Part shown: positions 1,372 to 38,867 of the stretch, one piece after another | Layout of the letters: each line of letters starts with the position of its first letter | How positions within the stretch are numbered: the stretch's first letter is position 1 | Source: Psammoneis japonica | Lineage: Eukaryota | NCBI GenBank assembly: GCA_008632985.1 | Contig: QPGO01000166.1 | Coordinates: 124,001 to 162,867 of the forward strand | DNA: 38,867 bases | Reading direction: 5' to 3' | The notes under the pieces: generated by a model | The model's input: the letters and a program-made list of their open reading frames with translations, nothing else | Told to the model about the DNA's origin: nothing | The model's database searches: none | Made by a program: the position numbers and the translations under genes

Positions 1372-4300
1372 TTATGCCCGCTTTCTATCAGGCGGACAAA
1401 ACGTAGTCTTAACCATAAAGGAGAGATCTGGGATCTGACCCATCAATCGCCTCGCTGCATCCGTAACCTGTGTTTCTTCAGATTCCCCCGCCTTATTTGA
1501 GTCTATTTTGCCAACTTTACTGGGCGTACGGTTTTCGATGGGCTTCTTTGCAGGTGGGAGTGCCACAATTGTCCCTCCTGCAGAGGACCCAGTCGCTGGA
1601 GAGGAGCGACTCCCCACTTTACGCGTAGTTTCATTTGCAGCATTTCCCGTATCGTTGTTTGATTGGTTTGACTTCCTTGAAGCCGGGATACTCGCCCGCG
1701 GTCCCCGTTCCGTGGCAGGCTTTTTCGCCGGTGAAACATTTGCGCTTCCACCACTATTTCGATTGGCTATCTTAATTGCAAAAACGTCCGGCACCGCAAG
1801 TCTCCGGGGAGTTTGCTCTTGTCGCCGTTTCACACCTTCTCGAAATTCAGCCTCGGAAGACGACAATAACCCACCAATTCGAAACGAGAATGGCGTGTAT
1901 GAATGAATGCAATTGTTGACGACAACAGCACTCAGAGCGTCCTCTTTTCCCGCGCCTAGGTCTAAATTGGACGCAAGTCCATCACGAGACCAACGACGAG
2001 CTCTGGTATCTCTGCAAGGAGGACACGAACCCTATGATAGGTGGAACAAAAGCAAGATATCAGCACAAAACTATCTTCACTGGAGACAAGCAAAGGAGTG
2101 AGTTCTGACACCACTCTTACCAGAATTCTGCTAACAGCAACTCGTTCCTGGGTGTTCTCATGTATGTCGTCGTCGCTTTCGTCTTCCATATCCCGACCGA
2201 AAACTTTGTCAAACACGAGCTGGGAATTGGCCAAGAAGGAGTCGCCACCGTTTGCTCCAGAAGGCGGAGGAACGTTCTCTAAGGGCTCCGAGCTGTGCCT
2301 TGTTGTTTGCTCCCTTGGAGTTACAGATTCGAAGTCTCCAAACTCCCCAAACTCCTCGTCGCCATCAACTTCCCCACCAACCTTGTCTTCGGTTGGGGAT
2401 GCAACGGCAACTTCGGGAGGTCCAGCATCTTTAATAGCGTCGCTAGGCACTTCGCTGGTCGGTTCACAAAAGGACCCAAACTCCCCAAATTCGTCCTCTT
2501 CTTCTTCGGACGTGCCTCGCAAGTCCCCTGCTTCATCTAGTTTCTTCTCGCCAATCGTGGGCGGTTGTCAGATTCCTTTGCCTCGGTAAAGGTACCAAAG
2601 TCGCCAAATTCATCTTCGTCGGTTTCATCAGCAGCGTTTGCGGTTCCCGTCCCGCTAACTTTATTTTCATCCGCCACGTCGGAACGGCTATCCATATATG
2701 TTTGTCAGTTTTCGACAACACTGTACCATCTTTGGAAGACGCGAATTCGCCGAACTCATTTTGGTGTTCCGAAGCATCTAAGGCTGGCTCCGAAAACGAC
2801 CCAAAGTCACCAAATTCATCTTCTTCTGGAGATTTTTGTGATGCGGGCGGCCCCGAGTTTTCGTTTGAGGCTCCAGCGCCGCTGACTTTACTACCGTCCA
2901 TAACATCGGAAATGCTATCGACAGTCTGGCCGTCAATTTTCGACAACACAAAACTCTCTTTCGGAGACTCGAATTCAACGAACTCATTTTGAGGTCCCGG
3001 AGCATCTAAGACTGGCTCCGGAAACGACCCAAAGTCTCCAAACTCATTTTCCCCGGAGATGAATCCGGTCCTGATTTAATCTGCTGAATCTCTCTTTCGC
3101 CCCACTCGTGGTTTTCTTCCTCACCTTGGTCGACTTTCTCGACAGAGCCTTCGTCGGGTTCCGTGTTGATGCCTTCCCCTGGCGCTGTGTCTTGAGCGAC
3201 ACCAAAGTGAAATTCACCATCGTCTGCAATCGGAGTGCTTTTAGCTGCATTTACATGTAGTGGCTGACCCGATTTTCTACCTTCAGTGCCTGTCAACGCA
3301 GCATTATTGGCTGAAGAGCCAACGAAGTCATGATCTGTCATTTCGTCATTATCAGTAGCAAGCTGTCCGAATCCTTCAATTGGCGCTGCTGAAGCGACTG
3401 TGTCTTCCACAGCGTCAGGAATGAATTGTGAAGTGGCTTTGTCTGCTACATCCGCCTCTTCCATCGTGCCAAAATCGCCGAATTCTTCGTTCGTCAATTC
3501 AGTGCCTCCGGCTTCATCTTTCGTCGCGTCAGTCTTTGCCTCCACTGCTTCGTCCCCTAAATCTTGAGTTTCCGTCACATGGCCGTCACCTGATGTGTCT
3601 AATCTGTCTTGGGCCAGATCAATATGCGAATCTGCTTCGAAGATTCTTCATTGTTGGAAAGTGACGAGCTAGCCTTGTCTGAAGTAAACTCGCCGAATTT
3701 GTCGCTAGTGTAGATTCGATATTTTGCATCGATGTAGAATCGTCCTCCGAGAGGTTGTGTGAAGCGATTTTGGATGCATTATTGATGCGTGCCTCTTCGA
3801 AAGTGCCAAACCCACCAAATGCTTCCTTTTCTTCTTCTCCGCTTTCTATCTTGGACTGGCCGCTGAATAAGTCATCTTGAAGGTCAATGCCCGACGTCGT
3901 CGCAACGTCTTGGGTTGCTGGAGGGACTTCACTCATCTCTGTTGAGAAGAAGTTGGCTGTTTTGGGTTGGCAAACATTTTCGGTTGACTGAGCAAACTCA
4001 ATTAATGGCGCTTCTCTGGGTGTCTCTCCCGCGGCGCATTCGTCTGATGTTACAGCGGCGGGTAACGCTGAAGTATCCACGTCGTTGGTATTTGGATCAG
4101 TTGTATTATTCTCTGTTCCAGTGTACTGCAAATCTCCAGCATCGTCGAGACTATCATCAATCGGTACGGGAGATCTATCGTCTGAAACCACCGGTGATGC
4201 GCACGTACCGCTGGTTTCTTCGAGGGAAGCGCTGCCTTCTTCCGGGAGGAGCTCCGATGCAATCTGAGGCGTCTCCGAGACACTTGGTGGTGAGGCATCT

Positions 4301-4958
4301 CCGCCGCTAGATTGGGCGGCCTTTAGTTCATCAAAGACATGATCGGTTTTGCTTTCGGCGTCATCGATAACAACGCCATTGACGTCGAGGAGGCTGTTCG
4401 CGGTTTCAGTTGCATCTGCCGGGTCGGGCGAGCCTGTCACAAAATCTCTGATACCTATCGTCTCAGTAATTCCTTCACCATCATTGAGAGTTTTGATTTC
4501 TGTAGTTTCCATCAAGACGCCATTGGAATTGATGGCGCTTGAGTCATAGCATTCGTCTTCACAATCAGGTTTCAGTGTGCCAGCACTTGGCGTTGTTGCG
4601 TCATGTTTGATGTTGTTGTGCTCCTTTTCTTCGCCTTCCTTATCAAAGAAAAGCTCTTCAGCGACATCCTTATTTTTCTCTATCTCCTTAACATCATGGT
4701 CTCTTCTGTTTTGGGAATGGAGATTGCATTCTCGTTCTCGCTGAATGCGATGATACCATGAGCAGGGCTGCCACTAGAAGACTCTGTCGCGTTGTTATGC
4801 GACGGATGTACCACCAGGCCTTCAGATGGAAAAGGATCTTCGCCATTGCCAATCTCCTTTATTTTTGCGTGATCGTTCTCAAGGTCATTGCCAGCATCAA
4901 GTGACCCGAGCTGGTGTGCTTCCGCGTTCTCTTCCGGTTGTGCTTCCATAGCTGTCAC
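1372..4958 (-). CDS. Large acidic aftiphilin-like protein with repeated [DE]FG[DE]F motifs; frame broken by several single-base indels
   Basis: Consecutive minus-strand ORFs of the same composition carry many EFGDFGxF/EFGEFGSF motifs (gamma-adaptin ear-binding type); C-terminal IPDLSFM resembles the aftiphilin C-terminus. Start not defined. Confidence 0.6.
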
Positions 4959-8733: not shown

Positions 8734-9101
8734 TGTCGATCCTCAGCGTCACAAAACAAGAAGCAATTGGAAGTGCACCACAGCGAACGCTCTCGTTAAC
8801 GATGTTTTCGCACCGCCACCCACCACCATCGATCCGTTCCCCCCAGAAACAGACGTCATTCAATCAATCATCGCAATTTGCGCGCGAAACGATGGATGGA
8901 ATCAAGCGACTAGACTTTTGTCGGAGGGAAGTTTTGATTCCACGTGGAGCGAGCGCTCAAGGGGGTACCGGGTAGGGGCCTGCAATGACAGCGACAAGGC
9001 AGGACTGGTTGGGTGTTCTCGTTGCGGTTGTTGAGTGCTCTTCATGGATAGCTCATAGATCGAAAGAATTGTGTGCTGGCTCACTTTTACACAAAGCCGA
9101 G

Positions 9102-9935
9102 ATGTTTGAAGACGTCACCTATCCCCAAGCGTCCGGCGTGCTCGTTCTCCTTCTGATCATTGCTGCGACGCTTGCCTATCTCAGTAATATGGCCGTGATG
9201 CTGCCAAAGCGAAAAAAGGATACTGCATGGACTGAGGAGTTGAAACAAAGTAAGGTCTCTTCCAAAGATAATGCAGAGGGACCACTGAAAACCATTTGGA
9301 ATTCTACGCTGGGGGCTGCGAGAGGAGAATCAGCTCAAGGGACGAGAGATAAACCTGTTGACAGACCCTTTGGATCCAGCTACTACTATGCACACAATAG
9401 CTCGAAAAGCAAAGGGGGGTATGCTGACGGACTGAAAATGGAGGACTACCAAATGAATAAACCACGCCTCTTGAGCCGAGGTGGCGTATCCGAGAAAATA
9501 AATGATCAAGACTCGATAACTGAGGCGGTCACAAAAAAGCCAAGCTCGAAGAGAGTTATAGAGAGCAACAACGAAAAGCTCGCTCTGAATGGAATTCCAA
9601 TCACGAAATATATGTGGGATGATTCTGGGGATTCGAAAACTGGACTTGCGACAATCAGAATAGACACCCTTCCCGGAAAAGCAACCTCAGCTCCTATTGC
9701 CTTGAAAGATGCAAGTGTCACGGATGTTTCTGCCAAGGTTGTTAAAAACGGATTGTTGGTAACCGTCAAGAGTGCATCTGACGAGTATTTTCTGCACTTG
9801 CCAACTCTTTACGGTGAAGTCGATGACGTGAAAGCAATCCTAAAACCAAAGCGTTTGCTAGTTAAGGTTTACAAGAAGAAAAGAGGTGGAGGGAAGAAGA
9901 CCAACCTGAACGCGTGGCCGCATCCCTATCGGTAG
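9102..9935 (+). CDS. Membrane-anchored CS/p23-like domain protein
   Basis: N-terminal hydrophobic helix, SSYYYAH motif, ITKYMWDD...LxxLYGEV...LLVKVYK pattern of CS domains. Start at ATG 9102 is inferred; the ORF opens at 8985. Confidence 0.65.
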   Translation: MFEDVTYPQASGVLVLLLIIAATLAYLSNMAVMLPKRKKDTAWTEELKQSKVSSKDNAEGPLKTIWNSTLGAARGESAQGTRDKPVDRPFGSSYYYAHNSSKSKGGYADGLKMEDYQMNKPRLLSRGGVSEKINDQDSITEAVTKKPSSKRVIESNNEKLALNGIPITKYMWDDSGDSKTGLATIRIDTLPGKATSAPIALKDASVTDVSAKVVKNGLLVTVKSASDEYFLHLPTLYGEVDDVKAILKPKRLLVKVYKKKRGGGKKTNLNAWPHPYR

Positions 9936-10260
9936 CATCGGGAAGTAATTTGCTACCCATAACATAGCGACGGGTCTATCTTTTGTAGTTTGGCCCTCGT
10001 CTTCTCTTCTCTGCTTGGGAGTTCTTTGGCGTCTACAGCATGTCGCAGCACCTTGTAGTGACACAATGAGCTGAAACCTGAAAGAGATGTAGATTGCAAG
10101 ACAAAGGAAAAAGCGAAGCTCGCGACACCAAAGAGAAGCATAAAAATAAGTCTTAGGAACTGTAGTAGTACGAGCGCAACAAGTCAACTGCGAATTTTGC
10201 CACTGCTTCGGTACGAGCAATTGACAGAGGCTGTCTCTTGTTCCAACGCCATTGGGAGAC

Positions 10261-12780
10261 GGAGTGCCACGTCTGCTCAAGTCCCACCGGGCAGCCTCAC
10301 ATTGCTGCTGTGCTTTTCAAAACATCCTCCATGGTGACTCCAACCCCAAACGACAATCAGTGCATTGCCTTGTCTTGAAGAACCCAGACTGTCAAGATGA
10401 ATGGTCAAACGCATCCACTTCTTGCTCACAACCAAGGTAAAATGAAAAATGACAATTCTGTCTGAGCACAAGAAGGTGAGAGCATGGTGCAAAAGAAACA
10501 GAAAAACACAATGCATGACACATGATTGTGCCAAGAACACACTTGCTCTGTCTTGACTCATCTCTGAGTGTTGTTTGTTGCGTGCAATGCCGCGCTGAAC
10601 AAGAGCCAGAAAACCTGTGCCAGTTGATTTGCTGTGGTCACATGGAGCACAGACTTGACTCAGCAGTGACATCACTCCAAAATCCATCTCAATCATTGCA
10701 AAAGCCACACTGGCACTTGCAGCGCAGACATCAAAATGCACAAATTAACACAGCCTGTGCTGAGCAGATCAGACAATGCTTGAGCACCCATGGCAGTGAG
10801 CACCTCGGCAAAGAGAAACACAAGCCATGCTTGCACATTGGCGCAGCATTGCTTGAGTTGATTGTCAGAACTGTGAGCAAATCAAAAGCCAAGCTGAGCT
10901 CATCATTGGGTGGCATGTCTTCCAGAAACATGCAAAGTCCACGGAATTTTGAGCTCTGTCACTTTCCGCAGCTGGCATGCTCTTGGTGCCTGGAAAATTT
11001 CTTCAATGTGCTGCAACTGGGTCGGATGATGTGGCAACTTTCAGATGTGTCAGAGCTGGCGCTGGCAACACAAATCTTCAAAGCAACAGTGGCAAGCCCA
11101 TCACAAGCATCGCGGTGAAATCTTTTTCTTTGTTGGCTGGTGCTTGGCTTGTGTGGTCCTGCAATGGTTGTGGCAACATCCAATCTTTGCAGACACACAC
11201 CAAGTGCAGAGATTTTTTGTTTCCAAACAGCTGATCATGGGTGCTCTGTTTGATTGTTGCAGCGTTGCCTTCTTTGTCCATCGCATGACTTTCCCGAACT
11301 CTGCGGTCACTCAATCTCTCTGCGAGTGCAATCAACACATTCTTAAAACCAATTTCTTTGGATTTCTCATGTGCAGCCTCAGCGAAAAATCCTGAGCCAC
11401 ATGTGCTGCACTTGCTGCTGTTGGCAAAGCCAGGATGGGCTTGTGTGCAGTCAAGATTTCCTTTTGTCTTTTGATTCTGTGTTGCTCAAGTTGAGTTGGA
11501 AGAGGCACAACTTCTTTCTTTTGGACCCTTTTGTGGGCTTGAAATGTCTTTCTGCAAACCAAAATGTGTTGACTCCAAGGCGCAAAAGTCTCAAATGCAC
11601 AGGACTTGTGCACCACCAAGCTCAGGTGGTCAGATGGCTTTCATGAGCTTTGTGTGCTGGTCTTTCACCATTGGGGACTCAGCTCAAGCAAAACTCTGTG
11701 TTTTTTGACAATGGACTTTTGCTGGAAATGCCGCTGGCTTTGAACTTTGAAACAACAGCAAGATCCCTTGCTTTTCCAGAGCAGCAGGCATGGAAAGAGG
11801 CTGGTTGGCGTGATTTGCTGGAGAATGAAAAAGCCACTGCTGCGTCAGTCTTCATGCTGAAACAACACGTTGCTTGCCTGCAGCACTCTGCTTTGATCTT
11901 CCTCATGATTTTTCACATTTTCTCAATTGTTCTGTTAAATCAGGTTGTGCCATGGTGGCAATCAAAATTGAAGGTGTGGTTAAAAAACATTGCAACAATG
12001 TTTGATGCCATGGCTTGAAGCACAACAGCAGTGCAGGCAGTGTCAACAAAGGTGTGAGAGCCGCGGCGGGATTCGAGATCATCAGCTGCTGCTGCTGTGC
12101 TTGGCTGTCAAGAAGCCCCCATGATCTTCTCATCACTGGGAAAGAAGCTGACATGTTCCTCATCAGAGCCCATGCTCTTTGTCTTGCAACTCGAGTGGCC
12201 CTGAGTTGCCAGCTTTGCACGTGGGAGAGAGCGCAAGTGTTGCATGTCGTCAGCCACAAAAAGGACCTTCTGACTTTAAAAGAGCAGGTGAAAACTGATG
12301 CTGCTGGCATTGCACTCAGCAGCTAGGATGCTGACTTCTCTGACAACAGGAAATGCATCACAGAAAGCTGCTCTGTTTCTTGCTCTCTCTCTCATCCGTG
12401 CGTGGATCACACAGCATGGAGCACACAGCACTGCCAAGCCACAAAAGCCAAACTTTTCCCAAACTCTGGATCCATTCAAAGCTCCCAAAACAACTTCACT
12501 AAAAGTGACAGGTGATGCCAGAACAAGAGTGGTGTCAACACTGGCAGGCTGGGCAGCTGCGGGCCCTGTCGCATCACACAGCTTTTTTGGCAGCTGCTCC
12601 TCTGCCCTTTTCCGGGGGGGGGGGGGGTTTCTTGAGAGAGATGGAGAGAAAACTTTCAAAATCTTTCTGCCTGAGAGTGCTCCTAACCCTCTAAGCCACC
12701 ACAATGTCTAGCCAGTCCTGTGTCCAGCAGCAAGTGGACACTCTCCATCCCACGGACTGTCCAAATGACAATGCATGAAG
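10261..12780. other. TpA/CpG-depleted hypermutated island 1 (decayed repeat or gene relic)
   Basis: About 8 TA dinucleotides in 10261-12660 by manual count; TG/CA excess; ORFs here are Cys/His-rich and lack Tyr. Confidence 0.85.
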
Positions 12781-13211
12781 AATGACATGCCTTCGCGCCC
12801 ATTGGTGGGTTTTGCGATGCCAAATCGCGCGGGAAAGAGGTGACATCGTCAATTTCAGACTTCCGAATGACGAAAGAATTAACAAAATAATCTATGAATA
12901 TTGGATAAAATTTTATTTATTGGAGTTGGCCACGTCAGTCGATGGACTTATGGAAGGGCTTCATGTCCTGGACCAATCAGAATCGATCATCTCGCTTCCA
13001 GCTGGTGTCAGCATCTTGGTGGCGCAGGAAAACGCCAATCGCCTATCGCGACACGAGGTAGGACAGCTTCCGACTTCTCCCGTCCCATGTCAGTCTTGTG
13101 TTGTGGTGTCGGCGTGGCCAATCGCTTCGGGATTGCGTTGGTAAAACTTCTGTACAAGACGAGAGCAGCAACTGCTCCCATAAACTTCCACAAAAATTGC
13201 GAAGGTCAAGA

Positions 13212-14924: not shown

Positions 14925-15073
14925 GGTTCGTCGTTCGTCGTGATGTGAACTGTGTGAAGTTTTTTCAATATTTTGTGTGTTCGTTCGTCCGTCGGTCGAC
15001 TCCTCACCGTTCGTCGCGAGTTAGCTTTATGGCTGGTACTCTACTCTCTCTAAACTACACTTCTACTCTCTAG

Positions 15074-15076
<3 letters not shown>

Positions 15077-15112
<36 letters not shown>
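15077..15112. repeat. (AG)18 microsatellite within CTAC/CTAG/GTAG-rich quasi-palindromic flanks
   Basis: Directly visible. Confidence 0.95.
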
Positions 15113-16630: not shown

Positions 16631-17409
16631 GGTTGCTTTGTTTTGAGCTTTCCGATGTATATATTATATGTAATCTATCTTGAAGGAGCCTCGATTGAGC
16701 TGCTCAATCAACACTAGCCTTCAGTTGTAGCCCTCTCTATCTCGTCACCTTCATAATCTTACACTTTACACAAACACAGTTTTATTCCGATTCTAGGTTT
16801 TCTTTGAAGCTTCAACGAGCAAGTGGATTGCTTGCCTATCGTCGACGTGTAAATCAGCGACACTTCGGCGGCTTTGTACTTCCAATCCCAAATCCGATAG
16901 GTCGCGTGTCAATCGCCTCTTGGGTTAGCGCTTCCTTGGTCGACACTTTCCAGTGATTATAAGTACAGGGTAGCTCGGGAGAGTTAAAGCACAGGAAGGA
17001 AGAACTTTTTGCGATGAGACGAGACCCGGCAAGCAGCAAGCTGTGGCAATGGGCTCGGAGCTTTGCAGCAGTGCTTGGCCTTTCGTGCTTCGTGTGGTGG
17101 TGAAACGTGTGCGGCTTTTGTACGGTATCTTCAAGCGGGCTGGTGGAGGGAGTTTTTGCGCGCCAAAGTTCCATTTTAGATTATCCAGACCTGAGCACAT
17201 TATTTATAACATTACATCAGGAATCTACAAGAATGAAAATTTGGAAAAACTGGAGTGGGCGGAAGGACCACAGTTGGGACATGGAACAGGGCCCATCATG
17301 TTCTCCCGTCTTCCAACGTCATCTTGAATCGAAGTCGACTCCCCTTGTGCTACACCACAAATCTACCCCTTCTGCCAAGGCAGGGGCAAGGTGCAGAAGC
17401 AATCAATAA

Positions 17410-18969
17410 GAGCCAAAGAAAAAGATGCACAAGGCAGTCTGGTGGGGAGACTCGCTGTCCAAACAAAACAAGAAACAAGCAGAAGCCTCGAGAAAGGCAA
17501 CTTCCCCAACAAGAAGCACTCAAGCAAGCAAAAGCCATCAGGCCCTCTGCCTGTCTGTCTGTCTTGAGTTCACATGTTCTTCCCAGTTTGATGACAACCA
17601 CCATGTTGAAGTTGAGTGTGGCAACAACTGCGCCACTTTTCCACCCTCTCCATTGGCGGTGGCACGTGCCGCAGAGTGTCTTTTGTGGTGCTGCGGGAAA
17701 GACCACCACAAAGAAGAAAAGTGCTGACAGCAGCACCCCAGCTGGTTCTGTCCTTCCATTTGGTTGGGAAGAGAACAACTTTGCCAATTGCACATGCTGT
17801 CGTCTGCTGTGCCCAACAACATCCTGGTTTTTGCCACCACCCTCTCGCACACGAACAAGCAAAAATGTGCACACACACTGGTTGTGTGCTCCATCAACAC
17901 CTGATGACATTCACCACAGTGCCAGCAATGCTTGGAGGCTTCTTGGCCCCAACTTTGACACAGCGAACATGTGCCATGATTTGTGACGGATGTTTTGTGA
18001 AAGATGTTTGTCACAATCACGACAGACATTCAAGCCATTTGAGTTTTAGCTGGATGATTTGGCTTCTCAATCTCCACAATGAGCACAGGTTTCTTGGCCC
18101 TGTGGTCTCATTGCGGCATGCACCCACCATGATTTGCAATGATTGTTTTGCAAAGGACACTTGCACAATGCCCACGGCGGACACTCAAACCTTCTTTGTT
18201 CCTGCCAGACAGTGTCTCAACCCTGCAAAGAAAAAAGCTTGATTCCCATGCACACACACACACAGCTGCAAAAGCAGGGAAGACAAATGCGCACTTGTCT
18301 TTGGAAAGTTGTCAGATTTTGCTGATCATCGGCACCATTGCCAAACTGAAAACTTGGGCTGGCACACACAATTTTGTGTGGGCACTCACTGAGCTGGGTG
18401 CACAGGCAAAATGAGCATCGCTTGATGAACACAATGTCTCAAATTTTGCACCCAAGCAAACCACAAAGCAAACTGACAAGGATGCTGTGCAGAAGAGCAA
18501 GCAGCAACAAGCAGAGCAAGGTCAGCAACAATGCCATCTTGGAGCCCCTGGGTGCTTTGCTCACCACCTCCTCTGTCAAAACAATCAAGAACATGCCCAG
18601 CTCCTGCTCTGCTGCCAGCCCCACCCTGGACATGCAAAGCTTCTTTCCAACACCCATCAGCACACACTGCCTGCATTCATGCCCAGCTGTTTCCATCTGG
18701 ACTGCTCCCTGCTGCTGCAGAGCCGATTGGTCCAAAGCCACTTTGTGCACTTTGCACTCCCATTGTGCCTCTTGTTCCCCACACACAATGGGGATCACAA
18801 AGCCTCAGTCTTGCCATCACCAAAGCACTCTCTGACCAACTTCTCAAGAACTGCATGCCCAACTTGCTGCTCCACCTCTGAGGGGGGGTCCCTGCCCACA
18901 TGACACCGCAGCCGGCCGTTTCACCCTGCTGCACCACCAGGTGCCCTGAGAGAGAGCAGCGGGCCCTCA
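17410..18969. other. TpA/CpG-depleted hypermutated island 2
   Basis: One TA (TTAG, ~18047) seen in about 1560 bp; TA-rich sequence resumes abruptly at 18970. Confidence 0.88.
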
Positions 18970-19240
18970 TAGTCTACAGTAGAGTCTATTTCATGAGCTC
19001 CAGCTAGAAGATCCACGTAAAATTGAATAAAAAAGAGCTCGATGTTACATTGATAATTGGATGAACAGATGCACATTTGTCATGTAGACTGAAATGTGCT
19101 TATGACACACTGGCAGGAGCAAACATGCTGTAGCAAAGACATTGCAAAAAAGTTGTGTAACGTTTAGCTGGCTGCCCCAAGCATAAGACCCGCACACCAC
19201 ATCCACACCAAAAGAAATGGTGTACTCATTGCACCAGAAG

Positions 19241-21116: not shown

Positions 21117-21282
21117 AGAGTCGACAGAAACGAAAAATTGGCGTGCATTAGCATCGTTGGAGGCAACGCAAGTCACGTTCCGCATTTTGAGTACAAAACA
21201 CCTACCCCGGCTGTTCTTTCAAGCTTTCTTTACTGCTGTTCATTTTCATCTCGGTGAAGTATAAAACGTCACGATTTGGCCC

Positions 21283-21390
21283 ATTTCCCAGTGTGCAGTC
21301 AATTTGATCTGGCTCGCATCAAATGCACGATTTGCTCAATTTCCCAGCATACTCTCAATTTGATCTTGCTCGTATCAAATACACCATGTG
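21283..21390 (+). repeat. Diverged tandem duplication, 56-bp period, two copies
   Basis: atttcccagtgtgcagtcaatttgatctggctcgcatcaaatgcac versus atttcccagcatactctcaatttgatcttgctcgtatcaaatacac. Confidence 0.9.
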
Positions 21391-24527: not shown

Positions 24528-24859
24528 GACTCACTGACCACTACAAGGCATCTTGACGGAACAACTACACTACAGCTACTCTAGAGCTACTAATACCGGT
24601 AGAGAATAGAGAGTGGAAAGAGCGGAATACAGCAATTGCAGCAACTCTTATACACTGTGCCGGCAGGGGGCGGCAGGATCTTGACTTCTGACTTCATGAT
24701 GGCTTTCCGGGTTACGAAGAAATCCGTCTTTGTCTCCCCCTTCGTCCCGCCGCCGCTGTTCATGCCGGTGCGGCAGCAGTCCAGCTGCCCCCGACGACGA
24801 CTCGCACAGTCAGTGTGGCCTCACTCTATGGCAAGAGAGCCTGCTGGTAAGACTGTAAG

Positions 24860-27480
24860 CCGGGCATGCGCTTTGGTTGGGATGCCATTCACTCCTTTTT
24901 TCTTTTTTTGTTTGTGCAAAACTGTCCAACACACAACTGCTGCAAAAGTGCTTCAAACCACAGAGCATGTTGAGCCACAGCATGGTTGGTGCAAACTGAC
25001 AGACAGCAGAGCCCCCCGACCAGTTTCTGCCACTTTTCAGCTCAGTCAAGAGTCACACACAAACATTGAGAGGTTGTGGGGCTTGGGACTTTGGGCACAC
25101 TGGGGTGTGGTGTGTGTGTGGCTGTGTTGCGGGGGGTGGGGGGGGGGGGGGTCTTTTTTTCCCAGCAAATGCGCCGCGTGGGGACACTCTGCACACAATT
25201 GCAAGACACTCAGCTCCTGCTCAAGGGCACTTTTGCAATGCACTTGCAACACACAGATCTCATGTGCCCTCTTTCATAAAAAAAAATGCCCCATTGTGTC
25301 CAAAGGCCTGGCTGGCGGGCAGTGAAGAAAGAGATGGCTGCTTTTGAAAATGAGGTGGGATGTCATCCAACAATGCCGGTGGCACTGAAAAGACAAAAGC
25401 AAAAAGAGATTAAAATGTTTTTGTTTTGCGTCATTGGAGCAAGACAATCTCTCTTTGAAAAATGGCATTTGACAGCACCACTTCCCGGGCTGTTTGTGTG
25501 CTCAAATTTGGGCACTGCTTCAGCTGATGTGCTCTGGGGGCAACCCTCAGCCACCAAACACAGTCATTTGCCTTTTTGAATGTGAAAATGAGATTCAATG
25601 CCACCCCCATGCAAGAGACTCACATGATCTGCAATGCTGTGCTGCAGCTCTTTCCACAAATGTGGTGCCGCACAAAGTGCCAGCTCTTTGAAGCAACAAA
25701 GTCGCGCAAAGTTTTTTGACTTTGAAACTTTGAGAAGTCAGTGCAGGACCTTTGACTCTCCCACTTTTTTTGTCAATTTCAACCCACAGTGCATTGTTGA
25801 TTGTTCAAGGACAATTTGGCCACAAAGCTGCAATCCATGTGTCGCCACAAACTCCCAATTGAAAGCAACAGGGTTACAAAGAAATGGCACACAAGTGTTG
25901 GTCTTTTTGCTGCAAAGCACCCCCAAGTGGGTGCAACTTCCACTCAAAAGAAAAACATGGCAACACCACTGTCAGTGTGTGGTCTGAGAGAGATGGAAGC
26001 TGTGAATTCTCACAAGGAGAAAATTGACCAGATGAGAGACTGGAAGCATGCCCCCTCCAAGGGGTTTGGTGTTCAACCAGTGGGGGAAACCAGGTTGTTA
26101 AAGAAGATGACATGAGATGATGTAAAAAAGAGGCAGGAAACACTGGCCAAAAAAAGGGTCAGTTTTGGCCAGTGTGAGGCAAAACACCGCCACTCAACAT
26201 TTGGCAGAGTGGGGGCTCATTTTAGTTTTTGACTGGAAGCACCCTTCAAATGTGTGCCATTTTTTTCATTTCAGGTCATTTCCTTCTGACAAGAGCATGC
26301 CGGTCATTTGTCTTTTGCTCACTTCACATCATGTGGTCTGTGAGCAAAAACATGCCACAAATGATTGCAAGCATCCACAGCAGAAATTTTTCAAATTTTT
26401 GACAGGGAGTTTTGCACACCACTCACATTTTGAAATGTGGGGTTGAGTGCAGAGCTCATGATGCATTCATTTTCTGGTCCTTGGGCCCAAACTTCAACAC
26501 CATGTGCTGACAACAAGGTTTCATAAATTGTCCCCCCCCCCCAAAAAAGGCTGTTGAGTCTCACATCGCAATCCTGGACAATCTCTCCCTTGCTTTCTGG
26601 CACATCAAGCTCCCCCCTGCTCTGCATGTGGTCATCTTTCTGCTGCTGTCACATTGCTTGGAGGTGTGAGAAATTGGGTCGTTTTTGACAAATGCCAAAG
26701 TCTGTGGTTTGGCAGCTGTGCTCCTGTCTCACATTTTTTGCACTGCTCCTCTTGAACCACAAGTTCTGAGTGCTGCAGCTTTTGTTTGCTGTTGTGGCAT
26801 GGCAGCTGTGGCTTCAGTCCAAAAGAAAGCAACAAACCTGCCACTTCAATGTGCTGTCTCATCATTCCGATGGCTCCAGAGAGCCAGAAACACTCACCTG
26901 CTCTGCTCTCTGCTGCTTGAGTTGACAAAGAACATTTTTTTCCTCCCCAGCATTGGGCCCCTCCTGTTGTGCAGAACAGCTGTGTTTTCCACCTGTCTTT
27001 TCCTCTTGTCCAGGCAGCTGGCCTGCAAAAACTTGTTCGCTGCCACTGCACAAACAAAGATGGCTCTGCTGAGTGTGGCGCGGCGCCACCTGGCCAACAC
27101 CACAGCCACAAGAAGCATGGGCAATGACTGGAGCACAAGATTTTGAATGTGCAGATGGCAACCATGCAAAATGCAATGTTGCACCTTCTCATTTGTTAGC
27201 TGCCAATGCAGCCGTCAGGTTGGCAGAAGAAGAAGCACAATCTGGGAGACATGGCGGCAAAAACGATGCTGATTGAATGCTCTCTCTTCCAGAGAGCTGC
27301 TCTGGTCTCAAGTGCAAGTCAGTTGCAGACATTTATTTTCTTCAGTTGTCATTTAAAAATTTGACAGCAACACATTTTTGTGTGTGGAAAGACTGGTCAC
27401 AACAATCTTCTGCTGGTGCATTGTCATTCGTTCCCCGGTGCCGGTGCCGCAGACACTGCCACACAAGCAAGTGTGCGATC
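24860..27480. other. TpA/CpG-depleted hypermutated island 3
   Basis: About 8 TA in 24860-27330, all in TTA or TAA context; TG/CA excess. Confidence 0.85.
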
Positions 27481-29554: not shown

Positions 29555-31298
29555 CTCAATGCCAATGTACCGTCGCTACTGAGTGCCTCCTTTCATGTTG
29601 TCCATGCATGCGTACACATTTTCTGATAAAGCGTACGAACAATATTTAGATGCTGAGTGAAGAATGGTGAATACGAATAAGTCAAGTACAGTGGAAAGGA
29701 AAGGAAAGAAAATACGGTCCATTCAAGATTCAAAAAACATACCTTGATGAGACAAACTCCAGCTTCAAGAAAGAGCTTTGCAACCCGCAAAGTTAGCGAA
29801 GCCTCAAGTAACTGTCAGGTCGCCAGTCGCGTTGTCTCCAGAGTAGTTGTTACGTGAACATCCCTATAACGGTTCCAACTGAGAATCCGAATGCAGCAAT
29901 CTTCTCAATGCCAATGTACCGTCGCTACTGAGTGCCTCCTTTCATGTTGTCCATGCATGCGTACACATTCTGATAAAGCGTACAATCGATTTTAGATGCT
30001 GAGTGAAAAATGGTGAATACGAGTAAGTGAAGTACAGTGGAAAGGAAAGGAAAGGAAATACGGTCCATTCAAGATTCAAAAAACATACCTTGATGAGACA
30101 AACTCCAGCGTCAAGAGAGAGCTTTGCAACTCGCAAAGTTAGCGAAGCCTCAAGTAACTGTCAGGTCGCCAGTCACGTTGTCTCTAGAGTAGCACGTTGT
30201 CTCTAGAGTAGTTGTTACGTGAACATCCCTATAACGGTTCCAACTGAGAATCCGAATGCAGCTATCTTCCTCAATGCCAATGTTCCGTCGCTGCTGAGTG
30301 CCTCCTTTCATGTTGTCCATGCATGCGTACACATTCTGATAAAGCGTACGAACGATTTTAGATGCTGAGTGAAAAATGGTGAATGCGGTAAGTGAAGTAC
30401 AGTGGAAAGGAAAGGAAAGAAAATACGGTCCATTCGAGATTCAAAAAACATACCTTGATGAGACAAACTCCAGCGTCAAGAGAGAGCTTTGCAACCCGCA
30501 AAGTTAGCGAAGCCTCAAGTAACAGTCAGGTCGCCAGTCACGTTGTCTCTAGAGTAGTTGTTACGTGAACATCCCTATAACGGTTCCAACTGAGAATCCG
30601 AATGCAGCTATCTTCCTCAATGCCAATGTTCCGTCGCTGCTGAGTGCCTCCTTTCATGTTGTCCATGCATGCGTACACATTCTGATAAAGCGTACGAACA
30701 ATATTTAGATGCTGAGTGAAGAATGGTGAATACGAATAAGTCAAGTACAGTGGAAAGGAAAGGAAAGAAAATACGGTCCATTCAAGATTCAAAAAACATA
30801 CCTTGATGAGACAAACTCAAGCTTCAAGAAAGAGCTTTGCAACCCGCAAAGTTAGCGAAGCCTCAAGTAACTGCGCCATCCACGTTGTCTCCATAGTAGT
30901 TGTTACGTGAACATCCATATAACGGTTCCAACTCAGAATCCGTATGCGGCTATCTTCTCAATGCCAATGTACCGTCGCTACTGAGTGCCTCCTTTCATGT
31001 TGTTCATGCATGCGTCCACATTCTGATAAAGCGTATGAACGATAGTTAGATGCTGAGTGAAGAATGGTGAATAATACGAGTAAGTGACGTACATAAGGAA
31101 AGGAAAGAAAATACGGTCCACTCAAGATTCAAAAAACAACCTTGATGAGACAAACTCCAGCGTCAAGAAAGAGCTTTGCAACCCGCAAAGTTAGCGAAGC
31201 CTCAAGTAACTGCGCCAGTCACGTTGTCTCCAGAGTAGTTGTTACGTAAACATCCCTATAACGGTTCCAACTGAGAATCCGAATGCAGCTATCTTCTC
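29555..31298. repeat. Tandem array of five ~341-366-bp units containing the 3' coding end and downstream region of the gene at 31242-32240
   Basis: Units start at 29555, 29904, 30270, 30616 and 30957; the last unit runs into the CDS. Confidence 0.95.
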
Positions 31299-37150: not shown

Positions 37151-37439
37151 ACTTTGGTCTACTAAAGATTATCGCACTCAAGAAAAAGTGTGCTTCATTG
37201 ACAGTTGGCTGTCATCTGGTACTCGTATGCAGAAGCGGTGTTGTCGTTGCCAATGCCATGCCGGCCGATGTGGATTGTGGACGGTCTCTGCTCCATTTTT
37301 TTGTTGTTGAACGAACTCGAACGAGAACCGGCCGGCTTGTCAAGTCGCGCGCAAGCGCGAATGGACCGAAATGGGAACAAGGCGGACCGAATCGCAGATT
37401 CCCTGCCATCGCCTCTAGAGAGGCTTGGCTACAACCCCG

Positions 37440-38867
37440 ATGACATGACACAGTGAAAGCCACCGAATGACCGCAACAATCAGTGCACGAACATGTCCTA
37501 TGTGTGGAACACACAGGAGCACATGTGCTCGTGTGGTGCTGCTGAGACAGTGGGGCCAGGAAACAGGAGGGAACAAATCTGCGGGTCCAATTCCGTCCAT
37601 TTTGTTCCCCAACATTGTGTGAACAGAGGGCTGGGCTGGGTGGGAATTTTCAGCATTGTCGGCCCATGTTGGGTTGACACAAAACTGATCTTGTCATCAC
37701 CAGCAGTCCGCCAAACACAATGAGGGGGGGGGAACTGGGGCGGCCTGTCGTCATCATCCGTGGCTCATCTGTCTGCCTCCTGCTGTGCGCTGCTGTTGCA
37801 CAGTGACTCTGCCAAGAGCACAGCTGCCCACACCATGGACACACAATTAAACAACAGGACAGGTGGGGCTGCGTGGGCTCCGCCGCAGGCTTCAACAATT
37901 CGTCCTCGTTCAATCAGCGTCGGATTGTCAGTTGCCGGCCGGCCTCCCATTTCCAGCATGATTGTACATCGGCTGCGGGGACTTCGAGTTTTTGCATGCT
38001 AAATTTTACGGGGCAGAGCTTTTTCAATGCATCGATCCAAATCTGCACCACGCACCGTGTTGCATCTTTTCAAAAATCAACATCTGTCAGTGTTGTCGAT
38101 GCCACCCACACGTTCCAAGGCATGTCGCAATGGCACATGTCTGCTTTGTCTTGCTCCTCTTGTTCTTGTCAATTTGTCTTGATCTGCTGTTCTCTTCTTT
38201 GATGCATGCTCTTTTGTAGCTTGTTCAGATTTGACCATGAGCTCCGCTCTGAACGCTGCTTTTGCACTCCCCTTCGCTCTACGATCTGCAGTTCGCTTTC
38301 TGCATTTTTGGTGTTCGACTTTGGCTCGGGCATGGACAACCTTTTTCACAAGATTCTTCCACATGTACTTCAGTGATGCAATGGTCAATCGTTTGCTGCC
38401 ATTCTCTTGGGCTGTTTTCAAGAAGGAGCGTCGCAAAGCCTTTGTTCTCCTTGTGAACAATGGTGCTCACGCAATCGTCGTCCAATGTCGCTTTGTTGTG
38501 AAAGATTCTCATGCTGTCTGAGAATTCTGTCATGTCTTCAAGGGCTTCAATGGATCTCCAATTCTTCTCTTTTGCCATTTTCTGCCGCGTGAAAGCTTCT
38601 TCCGAAGAGAAAACATTGCCCAACCAAAGAATCGAATGACCTTGCCGTTCGCGTCGTCCTTCTTTGGCCATGCATCGGCAAAGTCTTTCTTCTGCATGCT
38701 TCGTTTGGATGCCAAGAAATCAGCCATTGACCCCCTTGCCCACACCAACAGATGCCGAGAAAGAGCCAAGACCAACTGGGCAATGCTTGCCCCAGCTTCC
38801 CTCATTGAGTTTGGCAGTGGAAGAATCCAAGATCTGAGATGCTTGTCGGGGTCTTGCTCTTGCAAGT
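37440..38867 (-). other. Partially TpA-depleted island 4 carrying a decaying minus-strand coding relic; runs off the window end
   Basis: About 8 TA in 1430 bp and more CpG retained than in islands 1-3; frameshifted protein-like segments (VIRFFGWAMFSL, KKVVHARAK). Confidence 0.7.

Follow-up and report, generated by a model that had tools for sequence, protein, structure and literature searches.

Before 2026, to our knowledge, fungal repeat-induced point mutation (RIP) stood alone as a genome defence that hypermutates chromosomal DNA in place. TpA-specific hypermutation has now been described by Mettrop et al. (2026) in mutation-accumulation lines of the chlorarachniophyte Bigelowiella natans, in which two integrated viral regions have a mutation rate ~1000 times that of the remaining genome (bioRxiv 10.64898/2026.01.13.699255). 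The main text of that preprint reports that 230 of the 231 new mutations in the viral regions were A>G/T>C, all at TpA, and that the process was seen in only some of the lines. It also reports 124 genomic clusters of 1-kb windows that are depleted in TpA and enriched in CpA+TpG, with mostly unannotated genes, and an enrichment of reverse transcriptase and DDE endonuclease domains among low-TpA coding sequences. The authors put forward an ADAT2-like adenine deaminase that would act on DNA, and raised the question of whether editing of this sort occurs widely among eukaryotes. Here we analysed a stretch of 38,867 nucleotides from the diatom Psammoneis japonica (assembly GCA_008632985.1, contig QPGO01000166.1, positions 124,001 to 162,867; hereafter the window, with positions counted from its first letter), and found four islands in which the TpA step (TA) is almost completely erased. 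A reading made from the letters alone (the sequence-only reading) had pointed to these islands and could match them to no described system, a statement that the B. natans work has made outdated. The best explanation, in our judgement a probable one, is a locally targeted mutation process that turns TpA into TG or CA and acts in place on non-coding blocks of probable mobile or foreign origin.

As far as the main text of the preprint goes, the islands resemble the B. natans regions in that TpA is converted only to TpG or CpA, on both strands, within discrete, mostly unannotated regions of an otherwise normal nuclear genome. They differ in the host, which is a stramenopile rather than a rhizarian; in extent, the loss being near saturation (observed/expected 0.01-0.09, against Rho 0.45 reported for the active nucleocytoplasmic large DNA virus region); in size, with blocks of 1.5-2.7 kb without recognisable origin rather than 25-186 kb of recognisable virus; and in the co-depletion of CpG. 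A third-base rule and the sparing of TTAA were seen here, whereas the preprint's main text contains no mention of CpG, trinucleotide context, TTAA or diatoms. Our literature search found no report of TpA-erased islands in diatoms, and the B. natans preprint was the only paper on TpA-specific hypermutation that it returned. New here are the lineage, diatoms, with a further case from a metagenome; the near-completeness of the end state; the loss of CpG in parallel; and an explicit motif in which the changed pair lies next to the third base.

Other known systems share single features with the islands. RIP is likewise transition-only, depends on a dinucleotide context, ruins selfish DNA in place and leaves sharply bounded blocks of odd composition. 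However, RIP makes TA (CpA to TpA) and lowers GC, whereas in the islands TA is destroyed and GC is unchanged; RIP is also triggered by duplication, whereas here a tandem array of five 346-base units is untouched and island 1 is single-copy apart from its edge. The decay of 5-methylcytosine (5mC) resembles the CG to TG/CA part of the pattern (CG observed/expected 0.21-0.63), but the loss of TA is faster and more complete than that of CG. The likeness to nucleic-acid deaminases (APOBEC/AID on DNA; ADAR and ADAT/TadA on RNA) lies in the short context, the A>G outcome and the T or U 5′ of the edited A, which is typical of the ADAT/TadA type and of fungal editing, a U at -1 being reported for mRNA editing by fungal Tad2-Tad3. 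In Escherichia coli, the bias of very-short-patch repair at T:G mismatches turns TA-containing words into CA or TG words, with a scarcity of CTAG; that process acts genome-wide, on one tetranucleotide and at a low rate, in contrast to the local and near-complete erasure described here. We know of no natural eukaryotic enzyme established to deaminate adenine in double-stranded chromosomal DNA, nor of a named deaminase with a +1 preference of T > C > G >> A.

Four islands depleted of TA and CG

For each dinucleotide, the observed count was divided by that expected from base composition (observed/expected, o/e), with island counts taken at the coordinates of the sequence-only reading. Sliding windows revealed four blocks with TA o/e 0.00-0.13, CG 0.08-0.42 and TG+CA 1.5-1.96, while elsewhere TA was 0.3-0.86 and CG ~1. 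The edges of the islands were placed from TA positions.

Island 1: ~10213-12880 (counts over 10261-12780), non-coding, between a 316-codon open reading frame (ORF) without Pfam match and the START/polyketide-cyclase-domain gene; TA 11 against 168.9 expected (o/e 0.07), CG 41 against 146.4 (0.28), CA 1.70, TG 1.79
Island 2: ~17408-18970 (counts over 17410-18969), the most complete TA loss; TA 1 against 92.2 (0.01), CG 0.24, TG 2.04
Island 3: ~24857-27334 (counts over 24860-27480); TA 10 against 177.9 (0.06), CG 0.21, TG/CA 1.7-1.8
Island 4: ~37417-38867 (counts over 37440-38867), truncated by the window end and adjoining the Hus1 gene; TA 8 against 85.9 (0.09), CG 57 against 90.5 (0.63)
Rest of the window: TA 1219 against 2074 (0.59), CG 1.00, CA 1.11, TG 1.10

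Together the four islands hold 30 TA where the host's own TA density predicts 324 (Poisson p ~1e-98). TA-free gaps within them reach 923, 673, 640, 598 and 592 bases, the 640- and 923-base gaps both lying in island 2, while the longest gap outside is 167 bases. The depletion of TA (0.01-0.09) is coupled to an enrichment of TG and CA (1.5-2.0) in clustered windows, against a normal background of 0.59 and 1.1, respectively. The islands total 8,160 of the 38,867 bases (21% of the window), each measuring 1.5-2.7 kb. Their edges are sharp, the neighbouring non-coding DNA is of normal composition, and G+C is 0.49 inside and 0.48 outside. The sequence-only reading had described such islands as covering about a fifth of the window, with abundant TG/CA and with CpG lowered less completely than TA (here 0.21-0.63 against 0.01-0.09), all of which our counts bear out. 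It had put about 8 TA in the first island; the near-total loss stands and the number becomes 11. Its coordinates were close, except for the right edge of island 3 (27480), which lay ~150 bases too far.

We then compared the islands with the rest of the window in purine/pyrimidine (RY) terms. The summed frequency of pyrimidine-purine (YR) steps was 0.231-0.244 in the islands and 0.236 in the rest, and the other three RY classes were likewise unchanged; in this coding the islands are ordinary, host-like DNA. The constant YR total indicates that TA and CG were swapped for TG and CA, by transitions only, and not lost in some other way. When host DNA was converted at random from TA and CG to TG or CA in a simulation, TG/CA o/e became 1.78-1.79, compared with 1.69-1.73 seen. 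The counts of TG and CA were nearly equal, and their order along the islands was as random as in host DNA (runs-test z -0.2 to -2.05 in islands, +0.6 to -2.7 outside). This random interleaving indicates that the events were single and independent, on either strand, with no strand-coordinated bursts. As read from composition and from the paralogue differences below, rather than from direct mutation calls, nearly all changes are A>G/T>C, and they are located at TpA. The sequence-only reading had inferred a process apart from 5mC deamination and opposite to RIP, converting TpA to TpG or CpA on both strands in discrete blocks; this core inference is upheld by the transition-only exchange, the interleaving of TG and CA, the paralogue differences and the lead of TA loss over CG loss in island 4. 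Both this internal evidence and a precedent measured in another alga support a TpA-directed A:T>G:C process distinct from the decay of CpG.

The loss of CpG has a context of its own, weaker than that of TA, with retention of 0.17 in TCGA and 0.18 in ACGT against 0.69 in GCGC and 0.70 in CCGC. In island 4, TA has fallen to 0.09 while CG is at 0.63, demonstrating that TA loss is not a by-product of CpG decay and agreeing with the earlier statement that 5mC deamination cannot remove TA. Since TA is nearly gone there and CG only moderately lowered, island 4 is probably the youngest of the four. Ordinary slow decay of old junk DNA, by CpG methylation together with GC-biased gene conversion or a general AT-to-GC bias, is a highly improbable account of the islands. 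Methylated CpG is known to end as TG/CA, and methylation of transposons in diatoms is described in the available text of PMC9998398, so that this account stands for the CpG part; for TA it is already refuted by the context data given below. Furthermore, a general drive from AT to GC would deplete AA/TT and AT and would hit TTAA, yet AA/TT are enriched and GC is unchanged.

Further processes were considered one by one and rejected. Decay by 5mC deamination alone fits only as a second, parallel process, because CG is down but TA is down far more. RIP would turn CpA into TpA, and the islands show the opposite (TA 0.05, CA/TG 1.7), as the sequence-only reading had also held. Within this window, a duplication-triggered process is contradicted by the normal composition of the 346-base x5 array (TA 0.69, CG 0.96) and by the lack of mutual matches among the islands. 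GC-biased gene conversion does not fit a GC of 0.49 against 0.48, an effect on TA only and the sparing of TTAA. The polymerase-eta motif, as in antibody hypermutation, gives A>G at both TA and AA; such WA-motif mutagenesis disagrees with the enrichment of AA and TT (1.35 and 1.27 against 1.16 and 1.13) and with the sparing of TA followed by A.

A three-base motif for the loss of TA

To define the context of the loss, N-TA-N words in the islands were counted and compared with the number expected from their density in host DNA, retention being the ratio of seen to expected.

TTAA: 8 seen, 10.4 expected
CTAA/TTAG: retention 0.30
CTAG: retention 0.12
GTAA/TTAC: retention 0.10
GTAC: retention 0.07
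CTAC/GTAG: retention 0.06
ATAA/TTAT: retention 0.04
ATAG/CTAT: retention 0.02
ATAC/GTAT: 0 seen, 43.6 expected
ATAT: 0 seen, 18.3 expected

The loss shows a three-base specificity, TAT > TAC > TAG >> TAA, and TTAA is spared: at mean retention 0.96 copies of TTAA would be expected, and 8 were seen (p ~8e-6). Retention is approximately the product of two per-strand survivals set by the base 3′ of TA, namely ~0.88 (A), 0.35 (G), 0.15 (C) and 0.05 (T). When all N-YR-N counts were fitted by maximum likelihood, the per-strand hazards came out as 0.06 for A, 1.04 for G, 1.8 for C and 3.4 for T. The fit preferred a model in which the changed pair adjoins the discriminating neighbour (5′-T-A*-B, A>G; on the other strand 5′-V-T*-A, T>C). 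This model was ahead of the alternative by 29.9 log-likelihood units when all host DNA was taken as the ancestor and by 32.9 when only non-coding host DNA was used, and it was also ahead in each island separately (7.5, 6.5, 6.3 and 2.4 units). We then simulated host DNA forward under the preferred model, and compared dinucleotide o/e values.

AT: host 0.91, simulated 0.83, islands 0.76
GC: host 1.04, simulated 1.17, islands 1.30
GA: host 1.16, simulated 1.04, islands 0.90
AA: host 1.16, simulated 1.26, islands 1.35

The results revealed that the preferred model shifts AT, GC, GA/TC and AA/TT in the observed directions, whereas the alternative model shifts AT the wrong way and leaves AA, GA and TT almost unmoved.

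Based on these data, the process we favour would act on each strand independently and replace A:T by G:C within a TpA step, leaving TG or CA. It would read a three-base word, in which TA followed by T is erased fastest, then TA followed by C and then by G, while an A after TA gives near-complete immunity; hence the palindrome TTAA would survive. In the same blocks, presumably silenced, CpG would decay more slowly to TG/CA, most likely by deamination of methylated cytosine. At TpA, an enzyme would most likely deaminate adenine in DNA to hypoxanthine, a base read as G, as proposed for B. natans, and some putative targeting signal would bring this enzyme to the blocks. The changed pair is the A:T of TpA that touches the 3′ neighbour, which places a T immediately 5′ of the deaminated A as in enzymes of the ADAT2/TadA type; this fits the family without being specific to it.

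The same footprint could be left by another chemistry, in which the thymine of TpA is modified, for example by TET/JBP-type hydroxylation as for 5-hydroxymethyluracil (5hmU) in dinoflagellates, or the whole block is rebuilt by an error-prone repair polymerase, and mispairing with G gives T>C with no deamination of adenine. We consider this unlikely, even though A:T>G:C on one strand is T>C on the other and all the compositional results fit it equally well. A parallel exists in a dinoflagellate TET/JBP homologue, whose product 5hmU is concentrated in repeats and tied to transposon silencing (PMC11572971), and dinoflagellates, chlorarachniophytes and diatoms all belong to the SAR (stramenopile, alveolate and rhizarian) group. 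The available text of PMC11572971, however, gives no TpA preference and no mutagenic outcome for 5hmU, and on the repair-polymerase side a polymerase-eta WA process should deplete AA/TT, yet both are raised in the islands. For the adenine deamination we favour and for a thymine modification alike, any candidate enzyme must reproduce TAT > TAC > TAG >> TAA, the immunity of TTAA and the identity of the changed pair.

Evidence for change in place and a second occurrence

Two features of the islands carry evidence on the direction and timing of the changes.

17917-18058 and 18068-18213 (+): old tandem duplication in island 2, visible only in purine/pyrimidine coding
10197-10384 (no strand assigned): left edge of island 1, a member of a dispersed repeat family with further copies in the same genome

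The duplication in island 2 scored 152 bits in RY-space blastn, against at most 85 bits in 5 shuffles, and among RY-coded blastn matches of the islands it alone exceeded the shuffle maximum. When the two copies were realigned over 147 columns, 85 were identical, 43 were transitions, 13 transversions and 6 gaps. The alignment contains 31 YR steps: 10 with CA facing TG, 16 that were concordant and 5 that keep CG in at least one copy. CA thus faced TG at 10 of the 26 aligned TG/CA steps, whereas independent transitions would give ~1.6 of 26 (p ~1e-6); this expectation was derived from the transition rate at other sites, each such difference amounting to two adjacent transitions. The pattern is as would be expected if the ancestor had TA or CG at these steps and each copy resolved them independently. 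The folded RNA of the duplication was no better than shuffles (z -0.49).

We further examined contigs derived from sequencing reads of two runs, X1 and X2. An X1 contig of depth 63 spans 9001-12601, passing unbroken from the normal flank into island 1 with 1 difference in 3.6 kb, and a second X1 contig spans 12642-14000 with 0 differences; the break between them falls at a G14 run. X2 covered the flanking ORFs and the repeat core only, leaving the island body without cover, and such a gap is no evidence of silence. Five more contigs (four from X1, one from X2) lie on 10226-10384 with 6-13 differences each. Within this edge, the 55-base core at 10226-10280 reaches a depth of 580 in X1 against ~63 for single-copy DNA, and of 1349 in X2, where the neighbouring genes have 4-10. 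This high-copy element has no tRNA or Rfam match. The body of island 1 is single-copy at >=80% likeness. Between 10261 and 10352, 13 differences are listed, including 8 transitions. Three CA of the window face a different step in another genomic copy, namely TA at 10285 and TG at both 10323/10324 and 10341/10342. The two letters of each such pair were assigned to one contig from their matching depths. In addition, the loose-end consensus of another copy of this edge has two more TA at CA of the window. Because the duplicates and the paralogues differ at exactly the TA/TG/CA steps, the loss of TA and CG appears from these comparisons to have taken place in place, after duplication.

These findings were extended by a search in metagenomes. 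The START-domain protein encoded next to island 1 was aligned with 28 homologues and led to 80 metagenome loci (325 kb), 29 of which are >=3 kb (251 kb). One of them, locus L058 (4,540 bases), carries the signature. Its START protein is 51% identical to that of the window, which places the contig in another organism. In bases 1 to ~1050, TA o/e was 0.07-0.23, CG 0.18-0.5 and TG+CA 1.65-1.9, while the remainder of the contig was normal (TA 0.3-1.4). The block holds 15 TA (54 expected) and 15 CG (49 expected), and its YR frequency is unchanged. TA followed by A was retained at 0.73, compared with 0.13-0.23 for the other three bases, and TTAA was found 3 times against 1.5 expected. The block has no similarity to the window, in either ACGT or RY coding. 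In the same contig, bases 3601-4200 have TG+CA o/e ~1.5, TA 0.51 and CG 0.5, and may be a partly converted block. Three other metagenome or metatranscriptome stretches (L049 101-800, L008 301-1100 and L027 201-900) have TA o/e of 0-0.2, but their CG and TG/CA are normal; this is a different scarcity of TA, probably codon usage in coding sequence.

We next asked whether the islands could be foreign DNA that was already poor in TA and CG on arrival, for example through selection against the words of a nuclease or sensor, and was not mutated in place. Such an origin would agree with the finding that no homologues of the islands appeared in Pfam, viral_contigs, phmmer or Atlas searches. Against it, five mutually unrelated sequences, namely the four islands and L058, carry one signature, and the islands have a host-like purine/pyrimidine makeup, sharp edges and flanking non-coding DNA of normal composition. 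Moreover, the island duplicates and the paralogues of the same genome differ at exactly former TA/CG steps, and one paralogue keeps TA. We therefore regard an imported composition as improbable.

We give very little credence to a sequencing or assembly artefact, in which modified DNA was misread and TA and CG were miscalled as TG/CA. The sequence was listed in 3 runs, with no RNA run among them; they come from one sample, possibly the source of the assembly, and their platform is unrecorded. However, the depth-63 k-mer contig runs unbroken from flank into island with a single difference, strand-specific misreading would give haplotypes of all TG or all CA and not a random interleaving, and an unrelated metagenome assembly shows the same signature. 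The B. natans mutations, according to the preprint's main text, were called from Illumina lines against their own ancestor (bioRxiv 10.64898/2026.01.13.699255). A base-calling artefact had been named beforehand among the things that would overturn the sequence-only reading; the agreement of the read contigs with the assembly and the signature in L058 dispose of it.

Island content, origin and host setting

We searched the islands for coding content and for relatives. Stop-to-stop ORF pieces of >=45 aa were compared with Pfam at E up to 0.1; no piece reached the cut-off in island 1 (42 pieces) or in island 3, and 12 of all 142 island pieces had one weak match each, all far below the cut-off. 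One of these, to APOBEC1, scored 14.1 bits where the cut-off is 27 (E 0.056); with 142 queries such a score is at the level of chance, and the match was rejected. Island ORFs had no relatives in four scans of viral_contigs, and an Atlas search with an island ORF gave no usable match. A phmmer search of an island ORF query against all 1.84 billion representatives returned 2 matches, both to repeat proteins through short repeated words and hence spurious. Blastn of islands against islands and window gave self-matches only, and the repeat search of the window found no repeat family and no inverted repeat in the islands. In addition, the window has five G or C homopolymers of >=7, every one of them inside an island and two being G14.

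12614-12627 (+): G14 run in island 1
18882-18888: G or C homopolymer
25138-25151: G or C homopolymer
26532-26542: G or C homopolymer
37724-37732: G or C homopolymer

CCCC/GGGG is the second most enriched 4-mer in the islands, and the TA/CG conversion model does not account for these runs. The islands are read here as non-coding blocks, probably of mobile or foreign origin.

Several points weigh against a targeted process acting in place on such blocks. None of the 142 ORF pieces reached the Pfam cut-off. The RY codon pattern, which is proof against transitions, was scored in the islands; the means were 3.7 for islands (68 windows), 4.1 for other non-genic DNA (240) and 8.7 for genes (78), by a score that separates the classes poorly, and the codon signal of the islands looks non-coding. 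The expected word counts behind the motif assume that the islands were once host-like in word frequency, and another source composition would shift the hazards and the model comparison. The GC excess and AT deficit are only about half accounted for by the preferred model, and the residual half of the secondary deviations may reflect ancestral composition. In several ADAT2/3 tRNA substrates an A follows the edited base, and it is not obvious how the third-base preference T > C > G >> A would fit these contexts. Most differences between the island 2 duplicates outside YR steps are likewise transitions (19 in 79 sites, compared with 13 transversions overall), and a broader transition excess may contribute in the islands. 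No unmutated ancestor was found, and polarity is drawn from ~190 bases of contig paralogues and one internal duplication of 147 columns. The read-derived contigs come from runs of one sample and one study, possibly the assembly's source, and are not independent confirmation. Finally, only 1 of the 29 long metagenome loci shows the signature, the other 28 having no such block.

The same footprint, nearly completed, is found in a diatom, that is, in a different major and ecologically dominant lineage, which partly answers the question of whether such editing is widespread. From the B. natans figures (211 mutations, 6,169 TpA, 3,132 generations) we computed a rate of ~1e-5 per TpA per generation; extrapolated across lineages, a TA loss of 97% would take ~3e5 generations at this rate. 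We raise, as a tentative and quite possibly mistaken idea, that a TpA-directed DNA-editing defence is common to the SAR supergroup (Rhizaria, Stramenopiles and possibly beyond), in which one enzyme reads 5′-T-A-B-3′, spares TTAA and rapidly erases invaders to an unrecognisable single-copy residue. CpG loss might then come from the same machinery working on cytosine, rather than from a slow spontaneous decay of 5mC, and the islands might be only ~3e5 generations old if the rate resembles that of B. natans. The end state described here consists of short, single-copy, annotation-free blocks between genes, which would be invisible to annotation of transposons or viruses based on repeats or homology and are easily found by a scan of TA and TG+CA. 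Such blocks make up a fifth of the window, and what is called 'intergenic DNA' in diatoms may therefore need revisiting, as may the estimates of past invasions.

The ORFs flanking the islands are ordinary eukaryotic housekeeping genes, of which the following were identified.

CIA30
eIF-1A
START/polyketide-cyclase-domain protein
TAF10
Bromodomain protein
KDEL receptor
2OG-Fe(II) oxygenase (DIOX_N type)
Hus1

The START-domain protein had 705 homologues at E <=1e-5, and every organism-named one was a diatom (Mayamaea, Epithemia, Extubocellulus, Synedropsis, Helicotheca and Attheya). Its top full-length matches were 54-63% identical, and a few of up to 73% span only half of the query. Because the named homologues are all diatoms and the neighbours are housekeeping genes, the window is assigned, on protein similarity, to diatom nuclear DNA, apparently without a close sequenced relative in the searched protein collection. 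An exact-sequence search with 5 flanking proteins likewise gave no identical entry in the collection. No deaminase domain was found among the 13 + 59 host ORFs of the window, and Rfam and tRNA scans of the whole window found nothing.

Several repeats lie in DNA of normal composition. The tandem array at 29555-31298 consists of five 346-base units with 91% matches, and its TA o/e of 0.69 and CG of 0.96 are normal, indicating that repeats as such are not targeted by the island process. A 42-base unit occurs six times at 2460-3831, at 62-100% identity to the reference copy, and these repeats run across the minus-strand ORFs at 1965-4773, which resemble an internally repeated protein and have no Pfam match. 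A 56-base tandem duplication with 81% matches occupies 21270-21384, and an (AG)20 microsatellite lies at 15072-15112, both in DNA of normal composition.

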